Virus genome (UHGV): UHGV-1364111
Source: a virus
Length of the DNA stretch: 40,203 bases
Strand: one strand, 5' to 3'
Part shown: positions 2,884 to 30,700 of the stretch, piece by piece
Numbering within the stretch: position 1 is the stretch's first letter
Layout of the letters: every line of letters begins with the position of its first letter
Notes under the pieces: model-generated
Database searches by the model: none
The model's input: the letters and a program-made list of their open reading frames with translations, nothing else
What the model was told of the DNA's origin: nothing
Made by a program: the position numbers and the translations under genes

Positions 2884-3213
2884 ATGGGCTTTCCATCTCC
2901 GGCAAAAGACTACGCAGAATCACGCCTTACCATCACCAGCATGTGCGGCTACGACGGAAACTGTCGAACCGTTGAGACGTCGGCTGGTTACGCAATCATC
3001 AACGTCGCAAATAAACCACATCCGGGCGATACCGTGCTGATTTCGTATTGCGGCCGCACGGAGTTCGCCATCGTGCAGGGGCGGGCGCTTATTGTTCCGG
3101 AGGGGGAGTACATCGAAGGTGAAGCGCTGGACGACACAACGGTGCTGGGAGTGGTTACACATTTCCTCAACCGTGCCGGCAGCCAGGAAGACGATCCGAT
3201 ACCAGTCATGTAA
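2884..3213 (+). CDS. UmuD'-like (pre-cleaved S24 peptidase-fold) protein lacking catalytic Ser/Lys
   Basis: MGFPSPAKDYAESRLTIT aligns with UmuD residues 25 onward (GFPSPAADYVEQRIDLN), i.e. exactly the UmuD' N-terminus. The C-terminus ...LGVVTHFLNRAG aligns with FGVVIHVVKAM. The SGDSM serine and the Lys of the dyad are replaced (ITSMCGYDG and VQGRAL). Confidence 0.55.
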   Translation: MGFPSPAKDYAESRLTITSMCGYDGNCRTVETSAGYAIINVANKPHPGDTVLISYCGRTEFAIVQGRALIVPEGEYIEGEALDDTTVLGVVTHFLNRAGSQEDDPIPVM

Positions 3214-3233: not shown

Positions 3234-3270
3234 TATTACCTGCATGGTAATAAAGTTACTCAGGTGGTAA
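3234..3270. promoter_or_regulatory. two tandem operator-like palindromes upstream of terS
   Basis: TATTACC-tgca-TGGTAATA (3234-3252, TTACC-N5-GGTAA core 3236-3250) and TTACT-caggt-GGTAA (3256-3270). Centres are 20 bp apart. Confidence 0.4.
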
Positions 3271-3869
3271 TGATGCCCGCGACACCAAAAACCCACAAAC
3301 GCAAATCAACGCAATATAAACCTCTTACAGCGATGCAGGAGGCTTACTGCCAGTCCTACATTAAGACACCCGAAAACCAGTCTCAGGCAGCGATTGACGC
3401 AGGATTTTCGCCTAATACGGCAGCCGTCAAAGCCAGCGTGATGATGCGAGACGAAAGAATCCAGAAACGAATCGCTGAGCTGATGGAGGAGCGCAATAGG
3501 CGTATGCGCGTCAGCGCTGATTACGTACTCATGCGACTGGTGGAGATCGACCAGATGGATGTGATCGACATACTCAACGATGATATGAGTATCAAACCGG
3601 TTTCGGAATGGCCTAAGGTCTGGCGCCAGTATCTTACCGGTTTCGAACTGGCCGATATGTTTGAAGGTCGTGGCGACGAGAAAGAACTGGTTGGCATCCT
3701 CAAAAAAATCAAATGGCCGGACAAGGTGAAGAACCTCGAGTTGATTGGTAAGCACGTCGACGTCAACGCGTTCAAAGAGCGCCTGGAGGTTTCCGGTACC
3801 GTCACCATTGCCGACCGCATGGCAGCCGCGCGCCGCCGCGTCAAAGAGCAGGCTGGTGGTGAAGAATGA
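3264..3869 (+). CDS. terS: terminase small subunit
   Basis: About 200-aa protein immediately upstream of, and ATGA-coupled to, the large terminase. Basic N-terminus and a helix-turn-helix-like segment QAAIDAGFSPNTAAVKASVM typical of TerS. Start ambiguous (GTG 3264, ATG 3270 or 3273). Confidence 0.65.
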   Translation: MVMMPATPKTHKRKSTQYKPLTAMQEAYCQSYIKTPENQSQAAIDAGFSPNTAAVKASVMMRDERIQKRIAELMEERNRRMRVSADYVLMRLVEIDQMDVIDILNDDMSIKPVSEWPKVWRQYLTGFELADMFEGRGDEKELVGILKKIKWPDKVKNLELIGKHVDVNAFKERLEVSGTVTIADRMAAARRRVKEQAGGEE

Positions 3870-5530: not shown

Positions 5531-5573
5531 GATTGTGACATGTCACGGCGTTAAAAGCCGTCGAATTCGTCTT

Positions 5574-6760: not shown

Positions 6761-6766
6761 GTTGTG

Positions 6767-6781
6767 TTACCTGAAGGGTAA
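6767..6781. promoter_or_regulatory. operator-like palindrome TTACC-tgaag-GGTAA
   Basis: GTGTTACC tgaag GGTAATAAT between the non-coding region and the gene preceding portal. Confidence 0.35.
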
Positions 6782-6871
6782 TAATTACAGTCCATTATGT
6801 CAATACACTACGTAAAATAATCCGTATATGGTTAAATTGGTAATAATTTAATCGTGTGTGAGGTTATCGCT

Positions 6872-18495: not shown

Positions 18496-20060
18496 TGTCT
18501 GATGTATTTTCTCTGGCTCCGGAAGGCCAGGCGTGGACCGAAGATAAAGCAGCAGCCAATCCGGCACGGCCAGAAGATTATGAGCCGACATTCTTCCAGG
18601 GCTCGATTGCTGCGCCGGTGCGCGGCGTGGCGGAAGGTACTCTCGGCCTGGCTCAGTCTGCCGTCGGATTCAGTAAACGCCTGATCAGCGATCCGGCATT
18701 CACCGCAGACGTGGCGCCAACGGTCAATATCTTCCGCGTTATGTTTCCAGATGCCGACAAAGCGCTGAATGAAACATACGACACGATTGGCAAACAGTTG
18801 CAGGATGCTCGCGGGTATGTGAAGCCGGATGCTGGTAGCCAGGGCACCGCTGCCGAGGTTCTTTATGGCCTCGGTCAGTTCGTGCCGGCCATTGGTGCGA
18901 CCATTGTCGGCGGCCCTGCGGTCGGTGCTGCTACGGCATTCAGCTCAACGTATGAACAGTCCTATCAGGATTTCAAAGGGAAGGGTGTAGACGAGTCGAC
19001 GGCTCGCAACCTGGCAACTCAGCAGAGCCTTTTCAACGCAGCGGGCATGGCCTTACCTGCTGCCATCGGCACAACACTGGCAACGCGCATCGCCTCAGGT
19101 GTGGCAATCAACACCGGTTTCGGTGGCCTGAACCGTTATTCCGTCGGCGAAACACTGGAGGAGAAAGGCTACACCGAAATGGCGAAACAGTACCGGGTAT
19201 TCGACGGCCAGGCGATGCTGGTGGATGCAGTGCTGGGTGGCGCCTTTGGTGGTGCCCATCACCTTGCCGCGCGAAATGCTGACGCGCCACCTCCAGCAGA
19301 TACTGAAGCGCCGATCCCGGCGGCGGAAGTGCAGAGCGCTCCTGATGCAACCGCAGAGCCATCGCCTGTGGTCGAAGTTGCGCCAGTGACTGATGCGCCG
19401 GGTGCACCGTTGCGATCTGATGCTCAGGCACCAGTGACAGAGCCTGCCGCCGCACCAGATATTCCTGCCATCAAACCGAGCGACATCGATGCAGCCCACA
19501 CTCTGAATGAGGGGCTCTATTACGATCTGGAATCCTCCCCGGTTCTGCATGCCAGCAACGAGAGCATCAACAGCCATGTGGCAGCCATGGATGAAGCGTA
19601 CCGACAACTGAATGACGGCCAGCCTGTTAACATCGGGATGATGGCGCGCGGGCTGGATGGTCCGGCCCGGCCTGGCATGCTGGAATCTGCAAACGAGCAG
19701 TACCATGCAATGCAGCAGGTTTTCGAAGAGAATGGTGTCAGGTATGAAACGCCGTCAGAACTGGCTGGAGAGGCTCCGGCGCCGCGCGCCGAAAGTGCAT
19801 TCACTGCGGCAGACGAAACTGGCGGCCAGGTCAGTGTGGATCCCGACACCGGCCAGGCAATTTCATCCAACAGTTACGACCTGATGGCGGCGCGCGATAT
19901 GGCGACCACTAATCCGGATCTGACAATTACGCATCCCGACACCGGGCAGCCTGCGAAACTCTCCGATGTTCTGGCTGAATTTGATGAGCAAATCCAGACA
20001 GTGCAGAACGAATCGAAAGTTTATTCAGTCGCCGCCGCGTGCTTCCTGAGGAATCCATAA
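18495..20060 (+). CDS. internal virion protein (521 aa) with Pro/Ala-rich linker
   Basis: ATGA-coupled start. Gly/Ala-rich N-terminal half. PAPxxAP low-complexity region. Confidence 0.45.
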   Translation: MSDVFSLAPEGQAWTEDKAAANPARPEDYEPTFFQGSIAAPVRGVAEGTLGLAQSAVGFSKRLISDPAFTADVAPTVNIFRVMFPDADKALNETYDTIGKQLQDARGYVKPDAGSQGTAAEVLYGLGQFVPAIGATIVGGPAVGAATAFSSTYEQSYQDFKGKGVDESTARNLATQQSLFNAAGMALPAAIGTTLATRIASGVAINTGFGGLNRYSVGETLEEKGYTEMAKQYRVFDGQAMLVDAVLGGAFGGAHHLAARNADAPPPADTEAPIPAAEVQSAPDATAEPSPVVEVAPVTDAPGAPLRSDAQAPVTEPAAAPDIPAIKPSDIDAAHTLNEGLYYDLESSPVLHASNESINSHVAAMDEAYRQLNDGQPVNIGMMARGLDGPARPGMLESANEQYHAMQQVFEENGVRYETPSELAGEAPAPRAESAFTAADETGGQVSVDPDTGQAISSNSYDLMAARDMATTNPDLTITHPDTGQPAKLSDVLAEFDEQIQTVQNESKVYSVAAACFLRNP

Positions 20061-22816
20061 TGAAACAGGCATGTGTTGAAGCCATTGCGCAGACACTGGG
20101 CCGCCAGCCAAAGGCTGACGAGCTGAAAGGTATTGAGGACCGTATCAAAGAGGCCGTGCGACAGGTACATAAAAAAAATGCCAGAGAAGGCAAGACTGGC
20201 ATCCCTGATGCGCAGACGTACATGGAGGCAGCCGATCTTGTGCGCCAGCGCGTTGTGCATGACGTTTATAAGAAGCGCCAGCGCGTCGCTCAGAACGCGA
20301 TCGCCATTAGCAGGGTGACTGACACCCTCGACGCCAATATCCCGCCAGAGCAGCAAACACCCGCCAATTTGCAGCAGTTTATCTTCGCAGGTCGGCGCAC
20401 AACTGATGGTAAGGATATTGCCGTGACCTCGGCAGAGGAACTGGCAACCGGAGCATATCAGGACTGGTCACGCCAGCTCAGTGCTGAACTGCTCAAAGCC
20501 GGTGATGATGTACGAAAATTTTTCGAGCAGAGTAAAGCGCTCGGCGAGCAGCGTTTCCGCAGTCTGTTCGACCAGCAGGCGGCAAAGTCAGCACAGTTCC
20601 AGATCCTGAAAGAGTTATATGGCGAGGACACCGGGAACCCTCAGGCGAAAAAAATCGCCCAGGTATGGAATGACGTCACCAGCCGGGCCCGGCAGGAAAT
20701 GAACGACAACGGGTTTGATATCGGCCTGCGAGACGACTGGCATCTGCCCTATGTGGACGACGCTGATTTTATTCGCAACGCCGGACGAGATGAATGGCTG
20801 GCATCATTGCCGGTGGCAGAACAGGCCAAAGCTAGATTGTCAGGCCGCCAGCCGCCGATAGAGTTTGCCCGCCAGGCGTGGGTGGACGACGTTTACAACA
20901 CGCAGGATCGCAGCAACTACGTTAATACGGACGGCAGCCCGATGAATGACATCGAGTATCGCCAGGCGCTGGAAGCGATCTTTGAAACGAAGGCCACCGA
21001 CGGCGCCAACAAAATCGACCCTGGCGCGTTCATGGGCACCGGCGGGATAAAAAACCGTGGCTCACAGAGCAGGGTGATGGCGTTCAAGGATGCACAATCA
21101 CACTTTGCCTACATGGAACGCTATACGCAGCAGCCTGTGGTGGGCGTGATGATGTCCCACCTGCAATCCTCCTCTCGTGATCTGGGTGTCGTTAAAGCCT
21201 TCGGCCCGGATGCTGCGCGCAACTTTACCCTGGTTCTTGACCGGGTGTATCAGCGTGCAGTCACAGGTGGGAAGCCCGTGGGGCACATGAACGAAGAACG
21301 CAAGATGGTCGAGCGGATGTTTAACTCTATGGCCGGGCTTAACGGTGTGGCCACATCGAGCGTGTTCACTTCTGCTGTTGGCGGTCTACGTAACCTGATG
21401 ACGAGCGCGATGCTCGGTACCAGCGTACTGACGGCAACCAGCGACCAGGCTATTATGCGTGCCAATGCCCAGGCGCTCGGTTTCACGCGAGACGGCATGC
21501 GCCTGTCGGCTAACACCATAAAAAACCTGTTCAGCGGTGATGCGAAACGAGCCAATGCAGAACTCGGCTTGCTGGTGGATTCGCATGCCGCTGTAGTCTC
21601 GAAGATGGGCGGCTTTGACCTGTCGCGCGGAATCACCGGATGGTTCGCAGAAAAAACGTTGAAATGGTCCGGTCTGATCGCCATGGACCGTGCCAACAAG
21701 GCGGCTTTCGGTCTGCTGATGTATAAAAACATTGGCGAACTGACCCGCAAATTTAAGACGCTGGATGACGTTAAAGGGTCAGATAAAACCATCCTGGCTA
21801 ACAAAGGCTGGAGCAATGAAGACTGGGCGATAATGGCAGCGGCAGACCTACAGCCAATGACTACCTCCGGTCACATGGGTATGACTCCTGATGCGATCTA
21901 CGCCGTTCCCGATGACGTGATCACCGGCATCATGTCGGACCGTATTGCACAGGTGCGCGCCGGTAGCGAAGCAGCACTGGCGGCGCTTGGAGATCTACCT
22001 CCTGAACGTCTGAAGCGGATGAAAGAAGCATTTGATGCAGAATCAGAGCAGACCATCAATCGTATGGTTCGCAATGCCCGCGCCGAAGCCGCTCAGAAAT
22101 TGCTGGGTATCACACACGGCGAGATGACCAGCGCTGTAACGACCGCCACCGGGCTTGACACTTACGCCCGCGACGACGCCGGGCAGCTGATTAAGAGCTT
22201 CATGCTTTTCAAAACCACGCCATTCGCCGGGTTCCGCCAGCTGGTAAACCGGGCTAATGATCTGGACACGGTGCCTGCGCTTAAATTCCTCGCTTCATAC
22301 ATTGCAGGCACGACACTGGCCGGGATGTTTGCAAACCAGATGAATAGCCTGTTGACCGGCAATGACCCACTGGATATGACAAAGCCAACTACATGGGTGC
22401 AGGCTCTACTGAAAGGCGGATCATTCGGTATCTACGGCGATTTCCTGTTCCAGGACCATACGCAATATGGCTCAAGTATCGCGGCCACCATCGGCGGGCC
22501 GGTGCTCAGCTTTGCTGAACAGTTAACCAAGCTGCTGATCACGAACCCGCAGAAGGCATTACAGGGGGAAGAAACTTCTTTCGGTGCCGACGCGCTTAAG
22601 ACGGCTCGAATGATCACCCCTTTCGCAAACCTCTGGTATGCAAAAGCCATTACCAATCACCTGATCCTGCAACAGCTACAGGAGATGGCAAACCCTGGGT
22701 ACAACGATCGGGTAAGGGACCGCGCGCAGCGGGAATTTAACACAACGAGCTGGTGGGAGCCCGGCGAAACAGCGCCGCGCCGTGCCCCAGATCTCGGGAA
22801 GGCGGTGGGCCAATGA
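20060..22816 (+). CDS. large internal virion/ejection protein (918 aa)
   Basis: ATG at 20060 with GAGGAA RBS (ORF track lists 20039 as the start). Size and position analogous to T7 gp16. Confidence 0.5.
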   Translation: MKQACVEAIAQTLGRQPKADELKGIEDRIKEAVRQVHKKNAREGKTGIPDAQTYMEAADLVRQRVVHDVYKKRQRVAQNAIAISRVTDTLDANIPPEQQTPANLQQFIFAGRRTTDGKDIAVTSAEELATGAYQDWSRQLSAELLKAGDDVRKFFEQSKALGEQRFRSLFDQQAAKSAQFQILKELYGEDTGNPQAKKIAQVWNDVTSRARQEMNDNGFDIGLRDDWHLPYVDDADFIRNAGRDEWLASLPVAEQAKARLSGRQPPIEFARQAWVDDVYNTQDRSNYVNTDGSPMNDIEYRQALEAIFETKATDGANKIDPGAFMGTGGIKNRGSQSRVMAFKDAQSHFAYMERYTQQPVVGVMMSHLQSSSRDLGVVKAFGPDAARNFTLVLDRVYQRAVTGGKPVGHMNEERKMVERMFNSMAGLNGVATSSVFTSAVGGLRNLMTSAMLGTSVLTATSDQAIMRANAQALGFTRDGMRLSANTIKNLFSGDAKRANAELGLLVDSHAAVVSKMGGFDLSRGITGWFAEKTLKWSGLIAMDRANKAAFGLLMYKNIGELTRKFKTLDDVKGSDKTILANKGWSNEDWAIMAAADLQPMTTSGHMGMTPDAIYAVPDDVITGIMSDRIAQVRAGSEAALAALGDLPPERLKRMKEAFDAESEQTINRMVRNARAEAAQKLLGITHGEMTSAVTTATGLDTYARDDAGQLIKSFMLFKTTPFAGFRQLVNRANDLDTVPALKFLASYIAGTTLAGMFANQMNSLLTGNDPLDMTKPTTWVQALLKGGSFGIYGDFLFQDHTQYGSSIAATIGGPVLSFAEQLTKLLITNPQKALQGEETSFGADALKTARMITPFANLWYAKAITNHLILQQLQEMANPGYNDRVRDRAQREFNTTSWWEPGETAPRRAPDLGKAVGQ

Positions 22817-23007
22817 TGGACATTTTTTTCAGTATTGGATTGATGTTGATCTGGTTTGCTGTCGTAGTTGTATGCGGTACTGCCTATTTGTGGGTGATTA
22901 TAATTGTCATCAGGAAAAAGTGGTTAGGAGAGAGGTCGGCGAAGGTCGTTTACTTCTCGACCTTCGTCATCATTGCCGCAATAATCTTTAAACTTCCCTT
23001 GCTGTGA
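22813..23007 (+). CDS. small two-TM membrane protein (64 aa)
   Basis: MMDIFFSIGLMLIWFAVVVVCGTAYLWVIIIVIRKKW...FVIIAAIIF: two hydrophobic helices. ATGA-coupled. Stop codon lies inside the palindrome GTGACATGTCAC. Confidence 0.45.
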   Translation: MMDIFFSIGLMLIWFAVVVVCGTAYLWVIIIVIRKKWLGERSAKVVYFSTFVIIAAIIFKLPLL

Positions 23008-23017
23008 CATGTCACGA

Positions 23018-23040
23018 GGCCGCGCGTGCGGCCTTTGATT
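23018..23040. terminator. GC-rich hairpin terminator between convergent genes
   Basis: GGCCGC-gcgt-GCGGCC followed by TTTGATTT on the plus strand. Also closes the minus-strand 86-aa gene. Confidence 0.5.
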
Positions 23041-23300
23041 TATGTCGTTTCCTGCTTCAACTTTTCTACGCAGTAATCAAGATGCATTTGCAGATCTTTC
23101 ATGGACATCTGCGAGCTGGTGACATAGTTAACCAGAGCAGTCAGCTCAGCCATAGGACCATCAACGTTAAAACCATCCTCACCAAGCTGGCGCAGCAACG
23201 TCATCAGGTGAGAATCTTCAACAAGGGAGCGGACGCCTCCCGGCGTGTGTATTCGTTCGGCAAATCCTTTTTCCAGCGGGTGATGATACTGACGTTGCAT
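23040..23300 (-). CDS. LexA-controlled small protein, candidate antirepressor (86 aa from the ATG with a GGAG RBS; ORF track lists 23318)
   Basis: Minus-strand ORF MQRQYHHPLEKGFAERIHTPGG.... Its 5' region carries a near-consensus SOS box. Function inferred from context only. Confidence 0.4.
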   Translation of the reverse strand: MQRQYHHPLEKGFAERIHTPGGVRSLVEDSHLMTLLRQLGEDGFNVDGPMAELTALVNYVTSSQMSMKDLQMHLDYCVEKLKQETT

Positions 23301-23319
23301 CTGATAATCTCCATGCATT

Positions 23320-23339
23320 CACTGTATATATGTACAGTA
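23320..23339. promoter_or_regulatory. LexA (SOS) box CACTGTATATATGTACAGTA
   Basis: CTGT-N8-ACAG with an AT-rich spacer. Matches the consensus TACTGTATATATATACAGTA at 18 of 20 positions. Overlaps a putative -10 TACTGT of the minus-strand promoter. Confidence 0.6.
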
Positions 23340-23376
23340 GCAAAAGTTCGAAATACTATCCAGCACGAATTGCTAT

Positions 23377-23391
23377 TTACCCAAAAGGTAA
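23377..23391. promoter_or_regulatory. operator-like palindrome TTACC-caaaa-GGTAA between the divergent 86-aa gene and tailspike promoters
   Basis: TATTTACC caaaa GGTAATAA. An extra GGTAATAA half-site lies at 23437-23444. Confidence 0.35.
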
Positions 23392-23495
23392 TAACTTTTC
23401 TGATTGTTATTCATTCAATTCATATAAGGTTTGCCAGGTAATAAACTGTCCTGATGATGCACGCGCGACGGGCGCTGCTTAACTGGAGACAGGCC

Positions 23496-25664
23496 ATGAC
23501 GGTATCAACCGTAGTTGACCATAACGATTACACCGGGAACGGCGTTACGACATCCTTCCCGTATACCTTCCGCATTTTCAAGAAAACAGATCTCGCTGTA
23601 TCAGTTGTCGACCTGAGCGAAAACATCACGGTGCTGGTACTTGACACGGACTATACAGTTACGAACGCCGGTGGTTACAATGGCGGTAGTGTGGTGCTGA
23701 CCACTCCGCTTGCGAATGGCTGGCAGATCTCAATTTCTCGTGAACTTGAGCCAACACAGGAAACCGACCTTCGCAACCAGGGTAAGTTCTTCGCTGAAGT
23801 GCATGAAGATGCCTTTGACAAGCTGACTATGCTGATCCAACAGGTCGCCAGCATGTTTCGTCTGGCATTGCGTAAACCGTCCAGTATCGCGAACTGGTAC
23901 GATGCCCTGAATAACTACATCCGCAACCTGAAGGACCCCAGAGACCCGCAGGATGCGGCCACGAAAAACTATGTCGATACGCTGGCAAATAGCAATTTCA
24001 CACGAACCCTGCGCGTCCCGGAGCCTATTCCACAGCTTCCAGACGCGGTAACACGCGCAAACAAAATCATTGCATTCGACAGCGCAGGAAACCCGATTGT
24101 TGTATTGCCTCCTTCTGGTTCAGCTTCTGATGTTTTTATTGAGCTGGCAAAACCTACCGGGGCAACGAAAATTGGGACCAACCACAGGGGGTTACTGTCA
24201 TCAGATCTTGATGCTATAGATCGCAGGCCTAGTGGGTATGGAGATTCCATCTCAGCAGTTCTCTCAAATGGCCAGGACGTAGAAATCGAAAAAACATATT
24301 TACGTTCGAGCCCAATATTGCCAACAGACTACCAGCTTATCGATGGCAAAGGCGGGAATCTGCAAATGTCAGCGATTGCACGAGCCATATCTGTAGTAAG
24401 CAAAAAAGGGGTTACTATCAGGAATATACGTTCTGTTGGAACGGTTGTTAACGGTCCTTCTACCGGAAACGTAGCTTATGGCGTGGTTGCTGAAGACAGC
24501 ACAAATTTGAAAATTTACGGCGTTGATGCTAGCAAATTTTCAGGTGCAATTGAGCTGCTACGGTGCACGGAATTCGTTATTCGGGATGTATATGCGAGAA
24601 ACGAAAGGTATCATTCAGATGTGGCAGCTGGCGGTTACGGTGTTTTATTGGAAGGTTGTCAGAGGGGTGTTGTTGACGGAATTAATTTCCTGGCAAGTGC
24701 TTCTGATGGTGACCTTGGCAGGCATGCTTTATATATATCTGTCGATTCATCTGGCAATTTCTGTGAAGACATAATGGTAAGTAACCTCATCGCCAGATAC
24801 GTCAATATAGACAACCGTGATATGCCAGCTGCGGTAGTTAGAAGATCAAACAGATGTGCCATTGATGGTTTTAATATAAACGGTTCAAACAATGGCATTG
24901 GTCTAAATGCTTCTAACGGAACGATACAGGATTTTCAGATCAGAAATGGTCATATGAAAATCTTCCAGTATGACGATAACGCTGTTTACGGTGTATCAGG
25001 TGGAGTGGATAACACCCCAGCAACAGTTATCGGGCTTCGTGTTGATAATGTTACAGTTGAGTTGGAAGTAAAAACTGGCGTCACTCCGACAACGGTAAGG
25101 CTTCATGCCTTAAATGTCACATGCCGGGATAGTCAGTTCTCAAACCTCAGGTTTAAAAGCCATGGTTCTTCAAATCCAATACTGATTGCGGCTGGGGCTT
25201 TCAACCTGCTTATTGATGGGGTTGAAGATTTTGTTACTGCCGGTAGTGCTTCAACATCTGCCCTGATAAGATTCCAGGGTAGTAACAGCAACATTAGTGT
25301 TCTGAATGTGAAAACTGCTCGAGCAGTTTTTGTTGGCCTGGATAACGTCACCGATCTTACAGTTAACTGGGAAAGGTTCGCTCGCGTTGTAAGTGCCAAC
25401 GGCACGGTAACAACAACAGACACAGACTCACTGATCAATACCGTATCTGCAACTGGTACCGGTGAGTTAACTGTTTCATTCAAACCACATGTTACCTCTG
25501 ATGCGGTGAGAAAATGCACAGTTACTCCTGCAAGTGTCGCAGGTTTGGTGATTCTTCCTGAAGTATCAGGTAAAAAACTGATACTTAGATTCTATAACGG
25601 GAGTGGCGTACTTGTGCCATTGGGCTCATCTATCGTTAGTGCTGACATAAGGTTACACTCATAG
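23496..25664 (+). CDS. tailspike protein: T7 gp17-like N-terminal adaptor plus beta-helix depolymerase-like body
   Basis: ATG at 23496 with GGAGACAGG RBS (ORF track lists 23454). N-terminus MTVSTVVDHNDYTGNGVTTSFPYTF...VLDTDY...GW parallels T7 gp17 MANVIKTVLTYQLDGSNRDFNIPFEY...INTDY...AW. Remainder is Asn/Gly/Val-rich repetitive (NGSNNGIGLNASNGTIQDF), typical of a right-handed beta-helix. Confidence 0.7.
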   Translation: MTVSTVVDHNDYTGNGVTTSFPYTFRIFKKTDLAVSVVDLSENITVLVLDTDYTVTNAGGYNGGSVVLTTPLANGWQISISRELEPTQETDLRNQGKFFAEVHEDAFDKLTMLIQQVASMFRLALRKPSSIANWYDALNNYIRNLKDPRDPQDAATKNYVDTLANSNFTRTLRVPEPIPQLPDAVTRANKIIAFDSAGNPIVVLPPSGSASDVFIELAKPTGATKIGTNHRGLLSSDLDAIDRRPSGYGDSISAVLSNGQDVEIEKTYLRSSPILPTDYQLIDGKGGNLQMSAIARAISVVSKKGVTIRNIRSVGTVVNGPSTGNVAYGVVAEDSTNLKIYGVDASKFSGAIELLRCTEFVIRDVYARNERYHSDVAAGGYGVLLEGCQRGVVDGINFLASASDGDLGRHALYISVDSSGNFCEDIMVSNLIARYVNIDNRDMPAAVVRRSNRCAIDGFNINGSNNGIGLNASNGTIQDFQIRNGHMKIFQYDDNAVYGVSGGVDNTPATVIGLRVDNVTVELEVKTGVTPTTVRLHALNVTCRDSQFSNLRFKSHGSSNPILIAAGAFNLLIDGVEDFVTAGSASTSALIRFQGSNSNISVLNVKTARAVFVGLDNVTDLTVNWERFARVVSANGTVTTTDTDSLINTVSATGTGELTVSFKPHVTSDAVRKCTVTPASVAGLVILPEVSGKKLILRFYNGSGVLVPLGSSIVSADIRLHS

Positions 25665-25671
25665 TAAAAAA

Positions 25672-25687
25672 GGCCGGAATTCCGGCC
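25672..25687. terminator. bidirectional terminator
   Basis: Perfect palindrome GGCCGGAATTCCGGCC flanked by A6 upstream and TTCATTTTATTTT downstream. Serves tailspike (+) and gtrC (-). Confidence 0.65.
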
Positions 25688-25693
25688 TTCATT

Positions 25694-27175
25694 TTATTTT
25701 AAAATCCTAAATCCCATTTCATCGTTTAATCGATAAATCATGATCAGCCTGTCAGAATAAACAACGGTGCTGGAATTCATCCTCTTATCCCTGTCCCAAA
25801 AGTCTTGTCCTGTTGGTGGGGATGAGACGATGCCGTATTGCTTCATGAGGCTGTGTTTGAATCTTCCATTTGCAAAAGAGGAGTAAACAAAGTCCTTGAG
25901 GAATGGTCTGGCTGAAAGTGATCTGTCCACGCTTGGTGGGTATGAAGGCCCACCAAAGATATAAACCTTCATGCCCTTCTTGTAACCATTCTCATAAAGT
26001 TTTTCTGCTGCATAGGACGCGACAAATCTATCAAGCCTTTGCATGTCATTTACAACACCAGACACTGTAGATGACAACGAGAATGAGCAAAGCACTAAAG
26101 TAATCGGTAATATCATCTTTAACCTGAATGGGTATTTATCCAGCAACCAGCAAAAATAAATTAATACGAACCCAAAGGCGATCATGACGCGGGAGGATGC
26201 GACTGGATTTTGCAAGATAAGCATTATCCCAGCCGTTAATGAGAAAAGCGCTACTGGGGTGATTGTGATCACAATTAATGATGGTAAGTTTAGTCCGCGC
26301 CTTTTTGACAGGAAGCCTCCAAGAACAATAGATGCAGACATAACCAACCAAGTGACAACACCATTGAATCCCTTCATCGCATCTCTGAATATGGCATAGA
26401 AGTTACTTGAATTCTCTCCGATCCGTTTAATGCCATTCATATCGAAAGACACCAGGCTTTCGTGGCTCTGAGTATACTCACTTAGGGATATAACATGCTT
26501 CACACATAGTTTATAAAGTACTGCGGAAATAATCAGTGAAATAGCGCACCTTATAACATAAGGGGCCTGCTTTTTGACATGCTCTCCAGAATATAAATTA
26601 GAGCATATTATCAATAACATCGTTGAGAATATGACGTTAACTGATGCCTGGTATGTAGTAAAAACCACAAATCCTAATGCTACACCCCAAAAATATCTCT
26701 TTGGTCCGGAGTTTAAAAGAACAATTGAAAAACAAACAGCAGACAATGCAGAGAGACCCATGATGAATGAGTCATGTCTGAATAGCATGTTCCCGATCCA
26801 AAAAGGACTTGTTAGAAGAGAAATCGATGAAATTGCAACAAGAACATTTGAACGTATAGAAATCCTCTCTACGACAATCAATGCAGCAAGAACAATGCAA
26901 AATGTTGACGCTATCAAAGTGAATGGGAAAGTGTCCAGCAGAACCCCGTCACCAAAGAACCTGAATCCAGACGTGCTGAGGGAGAACAGCCACATAATCA
27001 CACTGGCAAGTGGCCTAGCGTTATCCTCCCAGGCTGTAACTCCAGTATCAGATCTAAGCCAGTCATCAATAATGTAATTTTCATGAATGATAAATGGTAA
27101 AATATAAATCAATGACATGAAAGCTACTGCCGCCAATGCCCACCGATAATTCCATAAAAAAGATTTGCTAATCAT
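25694..27175 (-). CDS. gtrC: GtrC-like serotype-specific O-antigen glucosyltransferase (polytopic membrane protein)
   Basis: 493 aa with many hydrophobic helices and a C-terminal soluble domain. Third gene of a gtrA-gtrB-gtrC arrangement, ATGA-coupled to gtrB. Confidence 0.6.
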
Positions 27176-28092
27176 TGTTTTTTGCCTTTCAGTACATATC
27201 GAGGTCTATTCTTAACTTCAACATAAATCCTGCCTATATACTCACCCAAGACTCCAATCCCGATCAGCTGTATGCCGCCAAGGAAAAGAATGGAGACGAG
27301 GAGGGATGGGTAACCTCGCACAGCATTACCAAAGGCGAGAGTGTCTATAATCATCCACGCTCCATAAAGGAAAGCCACGCCGGCAACCAGTAAGCCTATG
27401 TAGGTCCACATGCGAAGAGGGAAGGTTGAAAAGCTCGTGATCCCCTCAAGGGCAAGGTTCCATAGCTTCCAGCCGTTGAATTTCGTGCTTCCTGCCACAC
27501 GTTCTGCGCGAGCATATTCAACAACATCAGTATTGCCGCCAACCCAGCTCAGGACGCCCTTCATAAACAAGTTACGCTCTGGCATGAGCTTAATGTTTTC
27601 CACCACCTGGCGAGACATCAGGCGGAAATCACCAACGTTTTCCTCGATCTGTGGGTTACTGATTTTATTATGCAGCTTATAGAACCACTCAGCGGTCTTG
27701 CGCTTCAATCTGCCATCTGTAGAGCGATCAGAGCGTTTAGCCAGAACCATATCAGCACCGGCCTGCCATTTCTCGATAAGGTGAGGAATAACTTCGATAG
27801 GGTCCTGCAAGTCTACGTCGATCGGGATAATCGCTTCACCGGACGCGTGATCAAGGCCGGCGAACAGAGCTGGCTCTTTACCAAAGTTACGAGTGAACGA
27901 CAACGGCACAACAAGCGGGTCTGCAACAGCAAGTGCGTTAATAATTGATTCTGTCGCGTCTTTGCTACCGTCATTTATGAAGACTATCTCGACTTCATGC
28001 TGCTGAAGGCCTTCAAATTCACGAACGGTTTTATAGAAGATAGGAATTGCTTCTTCTTCATTAAATACCGGAACGACCAGAGAAATTTTCAT
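27172..28092 (-). CDS. gtrB: bactoprenol glucosyltransferase GtrB (GT2 family)
   Basis: [17 protein letters not shown]...INDGSKDAT...: GT2 DxD/DGS motifs, two C-terminal TM helices, 306 aa. ATGA-coupled to gtrA. Confidence 0.85.
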
Positions 28093-28463
28093 TTCGCATC
28101 CCTAAAGACAATGAACTTTGAATAGATGAACCCGCACACCAGACTGATGGCAGAAAAAAGAATGAGAGTTACGATCGGAGCCATGCCAGACTTATCAGCG
28201 CACCATCCAACAATCGCACTCAGTGAGCCCATGAACCCAACATAAAGCATGTAACGCATGGTTGTAGTGGAAGACTTGAACGTGAACCTGGCGTTTGCAA
28301 AGAAGCTGAATGACACCGCCACGACGAACCCGGCAAAGTTGCCAAGTGCCTGTCCAGTGTGAAACGCATAAATGCAAATAGCGAACACAACCCAGTGAAT
28401 GAGAGTGTTTATAACGCCGATCGATGTGTACTTTGCGAATAACTTAAGCACTTTTACGTCCAT
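28089..28463 (-). CDS. gtrA: GtrA-family bactoprenol-glucose flippase
   Basis: 124 aa, four TM helices, [19 protein letters not shown]... typical of the GtrA family. First gene of the operon. Confidence 0.8.
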
Positions 28464-28484
28464 AAAATGTAAAACATTACTTTA

Positions 28485-28499
28485 TCACCTTTAAGGTAA
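28485..28499. promoter_or_regulatory. imperfect operator-like palindrome TCACC-tttaa-GGTAA between divergent gtr and lysis promoters
   Basis: TTATCACC tttaa GGTAATTT. Left half resembles the lambda half-site TATCACC. Confidence 0.3.
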
Positions 28500-28595
28500 T
28501 TTCGTTAAGAGTTATCCGATCAAATTTAATCCACATATGGTTTATTGTGTATGATGAACTCACCAACTAAGGGGGTTCTTTATGCACATTAAACG

Positions 28596-30384: not shown

Positions 30385-30700
30385 CATGGCATTTTTCATG
30401 GTACTGATTTCCGGTGACGGTATATAAAACGGTACGGTGAAAATAAGTTTTCAGAAACTTGTTATCAGTCAATTGGTTATGCATGACGTAAATAATTGAG
30501 TGGGAATGATGTATAGCTAGTTCATAGCACATCATATCTATTCAATGTCATCTATAACCCTCTGTAATTGCAGAGGGTTTTTGTTTATAGCTACTCATAT
30601 CTATTCACTCTACACCACATTTTTCGACGGTACAGGTGACGGTATTACCCGAAAGGTATACTCTCATACCGACAAAACATGGATGCATTACGGGTGAATT
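30385..30700. other. AT-rich attP-like region with direct repeats
   Basis: Between lysis and int. Contains TCATATCTATTCA twice (30532-30544, 30595-30607), GGTGACGGTAT twice (30413-30423, 30635-30645) and a terminator. Core site not identifiable without a host sequence. Confidence 0.35.
30556..30588 (+). terminator. rho-independent terminator of the lysis operon
   Basis: AACCCTCTG-taattg-CAGAGGGTT followed by TTTTGTTTAT. Confidence 0.65.

Follow-up and report, generated by a model that had tools for sequence, protein, structure and literature searches.

A probable LexA-controlled antirepressor gene, ant, between the late structural operon and the tailspike gene of an epsilon15-like (Uetakevirus) phage genome

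A small gene that is read against its neighbours inside the virion gene block, with a LexA (SOS) box directly in front of it, raises the question of whether it encodes the antirepressor by which a prophage is released from a repressor that cannot cleave itself. The gene lies in UHGV virus genome UHGV-1364111, a stretch of 40,203 nucleotides that was analysed as a whole and is called the window below. A sequence-only reading of this DNA had proposed such a role. The answer given here, with a probability of about 0.92, is that the gene is ant of a Uetakevirus temperate phage, controlled by LexA and acting on a repressor, Rep, without self-cleavage. Seen directly are the box, the gene, the orthology of both proteins to the crystallised pair of phage SPC32H, the synteny and the conservation of the regulatory region. 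Binding of LexA to the box and SOS inducibility of ant are expected from the orthologue.

The window is a Uetakevirus (epsilon15-like) phage genome. Local BLAST gave approximately 94% identity to Enterobacter phage BUCT554 in the shared regions, comprising most structural and immunity genes, and BUCT554 is classed in Uetakevirus, the epsilon15-like podoviruses. Because an integrase gene lies in mid-window and the 40,203 bases match a whole genome, the window represents a complete phage-type genome and not a prophage with host flanks. For 22800-23500 alone, the identity to BUCT554 is 96%. Mosaic replacement relative to BUCT554 was detected by local BLAST in the tailspike C-terminus, gtrC and some early genes. 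At 24175-26993 the C-terminal part of the tailspike gene and the adjacent gtrC-like gene are unmatched in BUCT554, with flanks of 86-94% identity; this is a mosaic swap of a receptor-binding and O-antigen-modification module. BUCT554 does share the gtrA/gtrB-like genes (minus strand, approximately 27172-28463).

The features of the locus are as follows.

23016-23035, plus strand: GC-rich hairpin terminator common to the convergent late operon and ant (terminator scan and fold)
23040-23300, minus strand: putative antirepressor gene ant, 86 aa, stop codon included (homology to SPC32H Ant)
23309-23312, minus strand: ribosome-binding site GGAG, 8 nt before the ATG (read from the sequence)
23320-23339, no strand assigned: LexA (SOS) box in a conserved register
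23334-23342, minus strand: putative extended -10 element TGcTACTGT of the ant promoter (conserved TGnTAC(T) block, 9 phages)
23357-23362, minus strand: putative -35 element TGGATA, inside the GCTGGATAG block and 17 nt upstream of the -10
23376-23392, no strand assigned: Rep-operator-type palindrome, 13 nt upstream of the putative ant -35, between the ant and tailspike promoters

The open reading frame of ant runs on the minus strand from the ATG at 23300 to a TAA stop codon at 23040-23042. A longer, 92-aa reading from the in-frame ATG at 23318 was rejected: this start abuts the LexA box, has no ribosome-binding site and is used neither in any homologue nor in the crystallised 86-aa protein. 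The GGAG core of the ribosome-binding site is invariant, and a longer block, GCATGGAG, is common to eight of the nine aligned phages. Relative to BUCT554 the gene carries 9 synonymous and 0 non-synonymous codon differences, which indicates that it is under purifying selection.

The gene sits between the late structural operon and the tailspike gene (plus strand, 23496-25664). The plus-strand genes on its other side encode a 925-aa gp17-like protein (20039-22816) and a 64-aa hydrophobic protein (22813-23007), probably a membrane protein. The orientation of the small gene against the flanking structural genes, as read from the letters alone, is thus correct. The further claim that the gene is bracketed by terminators holds for its 3' side and fails on its promoter side. 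At the 3' side the hairpin at 23016-23035 folds with -23.3 kcal/mol (z -3.9), and epsilon15 has an equivalent hairpin that its record lists as a rho-independent terminator. The T-tract is found on the plus strand only, where it serves the convergent plus-strand operon, and there is no U-tract on the ant strand. At the promoter side the terminator scan found no terminator and the fold was weak (z -1.4 to -2.3).

Next to this hairpin lies a perfect 12-bp palindrome, GTGACATGTCAC, which occurs in the window at 5535-5546 and 23004-23015 (2 copies, 0.05 expected). Both copies are placed between a stop codon and a GC-rich T-tract hairpin, in the same order along the terminated transcript. The palindrome also adjoins terminators in SPC32H (3 copies), epsilon15 and BUCT554, and is absent from the ant loci of phiV10, Tyrion, TL-2011b and BUCT711. 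In phages phiV10 and Tyrion a second gene, of the Bro-N type and named 'anti-immunity/anti-repressor', comes immediately after ant, with ATTACC-type palindromes before it (phiV10, retrieved segment L005, 1165-1446; Tyrion, segment L006, 1179-1458). At this position the window has the 64-aa membrane-protein gene and the terminator instead.

The 86-aa protein is 80.2% identical to SPC32H Ant over 86 of 86 residues (tblastn), and the gene of SPC32H and SPC32N is annotated as 'ant: anti-repressor protein' (SPC32H record KC911856). A phmmer search matched the protein to PDB 5D50_E, 'Anti-repressor protein' (E 2.6e-44, residues 1-86 on 1-86); PDB 5D50 is SPC32H Ant crystallised with its repressor. 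The match to PHROG 450 (E 5.8e-43) is to a family labelled 'unknown function', and searches of Pfam and NCBIfam yielded no meaningful family or model. Residues 33-82 additionally match the C-terminal positions 176-225 of the 232 positions of PHROG 1760, 'anti-repressor' (E 2.7e-6), a hint that some longer antirepressors have the Ant fold as their C-terminal domain.

When 50,697 phage records were searched by tblastn with the protein, 35 records were returned: epsilon15, phiV10, SPC32H, BUCT554, Tyrion and BUCT711 (Uetakevirus), TL-2011b, and other Escherichia, Salmonella and Klebsiella phage or prophage records. A scan of species-representative genomes added only 5 further ant loci, all with the same architecture; among such genomes the family looks narrow and confined to Enterobacterales prophages. 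The orthologues epsilon15 gp19 and phiV10 p24 are 77-79% identical to the protein and BUCT554 QQM14184 is 100% identical, all at the same locus and with the same LexA box. The orthologues of BUCT554, epsilon15 (gp19), phiV10 and TL-2011b are annotated as 'hypothetical protein', and in the Tyrion record the CDS starts 96 nt too far downstream. The ant orthologues in the retrieved segments are listed below.

Segment L001, 12382-12642: ant orthologue
Segment L004, 601-861: ant orthologue
Segment L005, 595-852: ant orthologue
Segment L006, 697-861: ant orthologue
Segment L008, 598-855: ant orthologue

The LexA box at 23320-23339 reads CACTGTATATATGTACAGTA on the plus strand and TACTGTACATATATACAGTG on the ant strand. 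It differs from the 20-nt E. coli LexA consensus, TACTGTATATATATACAGTA, at 2 positions, with both the CTGT and the ACAG core intact, and is separated from the ant ATG by exactly 19 nt; the near-consensus box that had been placed about 20 bp before the small gene is therefore real. A search for the LexA consensus with at most 3 mismatches found 2 sites in the window (23320-23339 and 2844-2863) versus 0.00 expected, the expectation being taken from 100 dinucleotide-preserving shuffles of the window. The bare CTGT-N8-ACAG motif was not significant in this comparison (2 found, 0.64 expected; 16 of the 100 shuffles reach 2).

For the regulatory region, the 170 nt before ant were aligned from 9 phages, and 5 further prophage loci (Erwinia, Citrobacter, Superficieibacter, Klebsiella) were examined. 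Going upstream from the ATG, the conserved order is GGAG, the LexA box (after a gap of 17-19 nt), TGnTAC(T), GCTGGATAG and the ATTACC-N5-GGTAAT palindrome. The LexA box, the ribosome-binding site, the putative extended -10 and the upstream Rep-operator palindrome are kept in 14 homologous loci. The box stands in the same register in BUCT554, SPC32H, epsilon15, phiV10, Tyrion, TL-2011b and 3 prophages, and is weakened in 4 further loci. Ten of the 14 loci have an intact box at a distance of 19 nt from the ATG; in three the left half-site is ATGT and the gap to the ATG is 17-18 nt; the remaining locus is that of SPC32N, which has a point mutation in the box. Over the 1458 nt that were compared, only 2 positions distinguish SPC32H from SPC32N, and at one of them, within the ACAG half of the box, SPC32N has A in place of C. 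Kim and Ryu (2013) reportedly found that a single change of the LexA site makes Ant constitutive and SPC32N lytic, and the C-to-A change agrees with that mutation, which we take it to be. Sequence conservation and the SPC32N box mutation are the support for LexA binding in the window.

The Ant loci of Klebsiella and Superficieibacter have ATGT in place of CTGT as the left half-site, together with a better overlapping -10, TATAT. A weaker box is presumed here, and LexA control may be looser in this lineage. Their positions in the retrieved segments are as follows.

Segment L007, approximately 560-585: ATGT-type box
Segments L015 and L016, approximately 2460-2485: ATGT-type boxes

The putative extended -10 of ant overlaps the left half of the LexA box, so that the box begins right after TG-n. 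The putative -35 and -10 match the consensus at 4 of 6 and 3 of 6 positions, respectively, plus the TG extension, and the GCTGGATAG block that holds the -35 is conserved across the aligned phages. A sigma-70 scan called no minus-strand ant promoter at its threshold, so the promoter is proposed from conservation. The box lies inside the 195-nt intergenic region between ant and the tailspike gene, with a Rep-operator palindrome between both genes, and might accordingly be thought to control the divergent tailspike gene, with or without ant as a second target. This is very unlikely: the box stands 157 nt before the tailspike ATG and beyond the conserved TATAAG block (23423-23428) that would be the tailspike -10, its distance to the ant ATG is fixed at 17-19 nt in all loci, and the box mutation seen in the SPC32N sequence is reportedly associated with constitutive Ant. 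Control of ant itself by LexA is the reading followed below.

The inferred target of Ant and the operator-type sites of the window are as follows; the palindromes come from a motif search.

36066-36656, minus strand: rep, 196-aa prophage repressor, candidate target of Ant (match to PDB 5D50_A)
3235-3251: operator-type palindrome
3255-3271: operator-type palindrome
6766-6782: operator-type palindrome
23376-23392: operator-type palindrome, the site beside the ant promoter
28484-28500: operator-type palindrome
30644-30660: operator-type palindrome
35931-35947: operator-type palindrome
35993-36009: operator-type palindrome
36711-36727 and 36759-36775 (within 36711-36775, no strand assigned): two operator-type palindromes between rep and the divergent early gene
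39606-39622: operator-type palindrome
39668-39684: operator-type palindrome

Rep matches PDB 5D50_A, 'Repressor', over its full length (E 6.1e-48, residues 1-192) and the C-terminal construct 5D4Z with E 1.2e-22. Pfam found HTH_3 twice in Rep and no Peptidase_S24 domain, in agreement with the earlier description of a repressor with two HTH regions and no autocleavage domain. Rep is 46% identical to SPC32H Rep, and its C-terminal region aligns without gaps with the Ant-binding domain of the latter. Since the identity is only 46%, cognate contact between Ant and Rep is proposed by analogy with the orthologous pair. Release of Rep from operator DNA is likewise expected from that pair.

The palindrome ATTACC-N5-GGTAAT occurs at 12 sites with at most 2 mismatches, or 28 strand hits versus 5.1 expected in the window, and most copies are intergenic. 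The same palindrome is enriched in SPC32H, although Rep is only 46% identical between the two phages. The epsilon15 record annotates the motif as 'protein_bind: repressor, lysogeny', including the site that corresponds to 23376-23392, and every homologous locus has kept one such palindrome in the stretch between the promoters of ant and the tailspike gene. The ATTACC-N5-GGTAAT palindromes are likely to be Rep operators. The two copies at 36711-36775 would be sites bound by Rep and vacated through the action of Ant; two further palindromes lie just downstream of rep. Among the repressor sites annotated in epsilon15, none is in the intergenic region between rep and the early gene, and the nearest is downstream of rep.

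Because the palindrome always stands 13 nt upstream of the ant -35, its position could mean joint control by LexA and Rep of the ant promoter or of the divergent ant/tailspike pair. An example would be a feed-forward latch, in which Ant could remove Rep from its own promoter region. A separate proposal is that Ant acts across heteroimmune Uetakevirus prophages; Ant is far more conserved than Rep (80% versus 46%), which would allow such cross-action, as in Gifsy crosstalk. Both are speculative and, on present evidence, unlikely.

The same difference in conservation between the window and SPC32H, together with the cross-acting antirepressors known in Gifsy phages, could be taken further, to the view that the Ant orthologue is uncoupled from induction in this phage and acts on the repressors of co-resident prophages or has some other role. 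The gap-free alignment of the C-terminal region of Rep with the Ant-binding domain of SPC32H Rep, the purifying selection on ant and its intact promoter speak against this view, which has very little probability. The preferred reading remains that Ant serves the induction of its own prophage through Rep.

The closest characterised system is the antirepression switch of SPC32H, reportedly worked out genetically by Kim and Ryu in 2013 (J Virol 87:11775) and structurally by Kim et al. in 2016 (PNAS 113:E2480). SPC32H is also a Uetakevirus. Ant has 86 aa in both phages, and the Rep proteins match over their full length and lack an S24 domain. The order of a small membrane-protein gene and terminator, ant on the opposite strand and the tailspike gene, outside the immunity region, is common to both, as are a LexA box, 19 nt from the ATG and overlapping the promoter, and an ATTACC-N5-GGTAAT operator upstream. 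The gene order around ant is the same in SPC32H, epsilon15 and BUCT554. The two phages differ in host (Enterobacter-like for the window, Salmonella for SPC32H), in the limited identity of Rep, in the box (2 mismatches in the window, 3 in SPC32H) and in the neighbouring small membrane protein, which is a different gene. These differences leave the kind of system unchanged. With a full-length orthologue of SPC32H Ant, an orthologue of Rep and the box in the same register, the idea of a LexA-regulated antirepressor, advanced from the sequence alone, was right; it is not new, as the system is already known from the same phage genus.

For the orthologous pair of SPC32H, PMC7380047 describes production of Ant after LexA self-cleavage and inhibition of the repressor by protein-protein contact. 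The DNA-bound form of SPC32H Rep is a tetramer, which is broken up by an Ant tetramer that engages two Rep dimers (PMC9638917); the C-terminal domain of Rep is assigned both tetramerisation and Ant binding in PMC9986798. A conformational mechanism, in which the DNA-binding surface is not occluded, is put forward in bioRxiv 10.1101/2025.11.27.690993. By analogy, in a lysogen of the present phage host LexA would occupy 23320-23339, overlapping the extended -10, and keep ant silent. After DNA damage, active RecA would promote LexA self-cleavage, ant would be transcribed and the 86-aa protein made. Ant would then bind Rep (36066-36656), with its two HTH regions and no self-cleavage domain. If the SPC32H model applies, tetrameric Ant on the Rep C-terminal domains would split the Rep tetramer into dimers, which would come off the ATTACC-N5-GGTAAT operators, and the release of Rep would allow expression of the lytic genes.

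The sequence-only reading had cited Gifsy prophages, coliphage 186 Tum and N15 AntC as precedents. The analogy stands for the regulatory logic, in which LexA controls a small antirepressor encoded away from the immunity region (PMC3121763), and does not extend to the sequences, among which BLASTP detected no similarity; the three appear to be functional analogues only. No alignment of the window Ant at E <= 100 was obtained with 186 Tum, with the LexA-boxed 75-aa ORF of N15 or with the 73-aa Gifsy-1 ORF that follows dinI, the last a presumptive antirepressor ORF picked from the operon order in PMC3121763. In 186 a LexA-repressed promoter, p95, likewise drives an antirepressor that blocks binding of CI to DNA; Tum differs in its 146 aa, its DinI-like C-terminal half and its family, PHROG 189 versus PHROG 450. 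The Gifsy-1, -2 and -3 antirepressors GfoA, GftA and GfhA are also small, LexA-controlled and encoded outside the immunity region, and bind a non-self-cleaving repressor (PMC3121763, Lemire et al. 2011). Their genes differ in belonging to a dinI-led operon of siphoviruses, and no dinI homologue was found beside ant in the window. The Gifsy complex is likely an A2B2 heterotetramer, as against an Ant tetramer with two Rep dimers in SPC32H.

The AntC protein of N15, which Mardanov and Ravin reportedly described in 2007, is similarly an antirepressor of the SOS regulon. N15 differs in its CB, a LexA-family regulator according to the record annotation. The right arm of N15 has a single LexA box; the 75-aa ORF compared here follows it, matches PHROG 6301 and PHROG 10889 'anti-repressor', and is presumably AntC, judged by its position. 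The N15 RefSeq record annotates neither of the following two features.

Segment L011, 15563-15582, plus strand: LexA box CCCTGTGTTTATATACAGTA of N15
Segment L011, 15605-15832, plus strand: 75-aa ORF of N15

Descent of the window protein from the Tum (DinI fusion), Gifsy GfoA/GftA or N15 AntC family, which the common arrangement of a LexA box before a small antirepressor outside the immunity region (PMC3121763) might suggest, is already refuted at the level of sequence by the BLASTP results, by the different PHROG families (450 for the window Ant, 189 for Tum, 6301/10889 for the N15 ORF) and by the 35 tblastn records, none of which is 186, N15 or Gifsy-1.

The second LexA box of the window, TACTGTTTAAATGTACAGTA at 2844-2863 with 3 mismatches, lies 20 nt before another small ORF.

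2884-3213, plus strand: 109-aa ORF starting MGFPSPAKDY (PHROG 3469 'UmuD-like protein', E 4.8e-43)

This ORF is located just upstream of the small terminase gene. It matches NCBIfam HumD with E 2.8e-9, below the cut-off of the model, and like P1 HumD it seems to be a UmuD' analogue in pre-processed form. BUCT554 carries the same TACTGTTTAAATGTACAGTA box; the segment of SPC32H that was examined showed no equivalent. The counterpart of the ORF by position in epsilon15, gp49, carries the note 'similar to N15 gp46', and BLASTP detected no similarity between the 109-aa ORF of the window and N15 gp46.

The value of the assignment is mainly in annotation. In BUCT554, epsilon15, phiV10, TL-2011b and others ant is labelled 'hypothetical protein', and PHROG 450 is marked 'unknown function' despite the crystal structure and the genetics behind the family. 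Recognition of ant predicts that this Enterobacter phage or prophage would be SOS-inducible through an antirepressor and not through cleavage of its repressor. It is also predicted that the phage would become effectively virulent through a G to T change at plus-strand position 23324, the SPC32N mutation (C-to-A on the ant strand), and this predicted one-base step to virulence would matter if such phages were considered for therapy or biocontrol.
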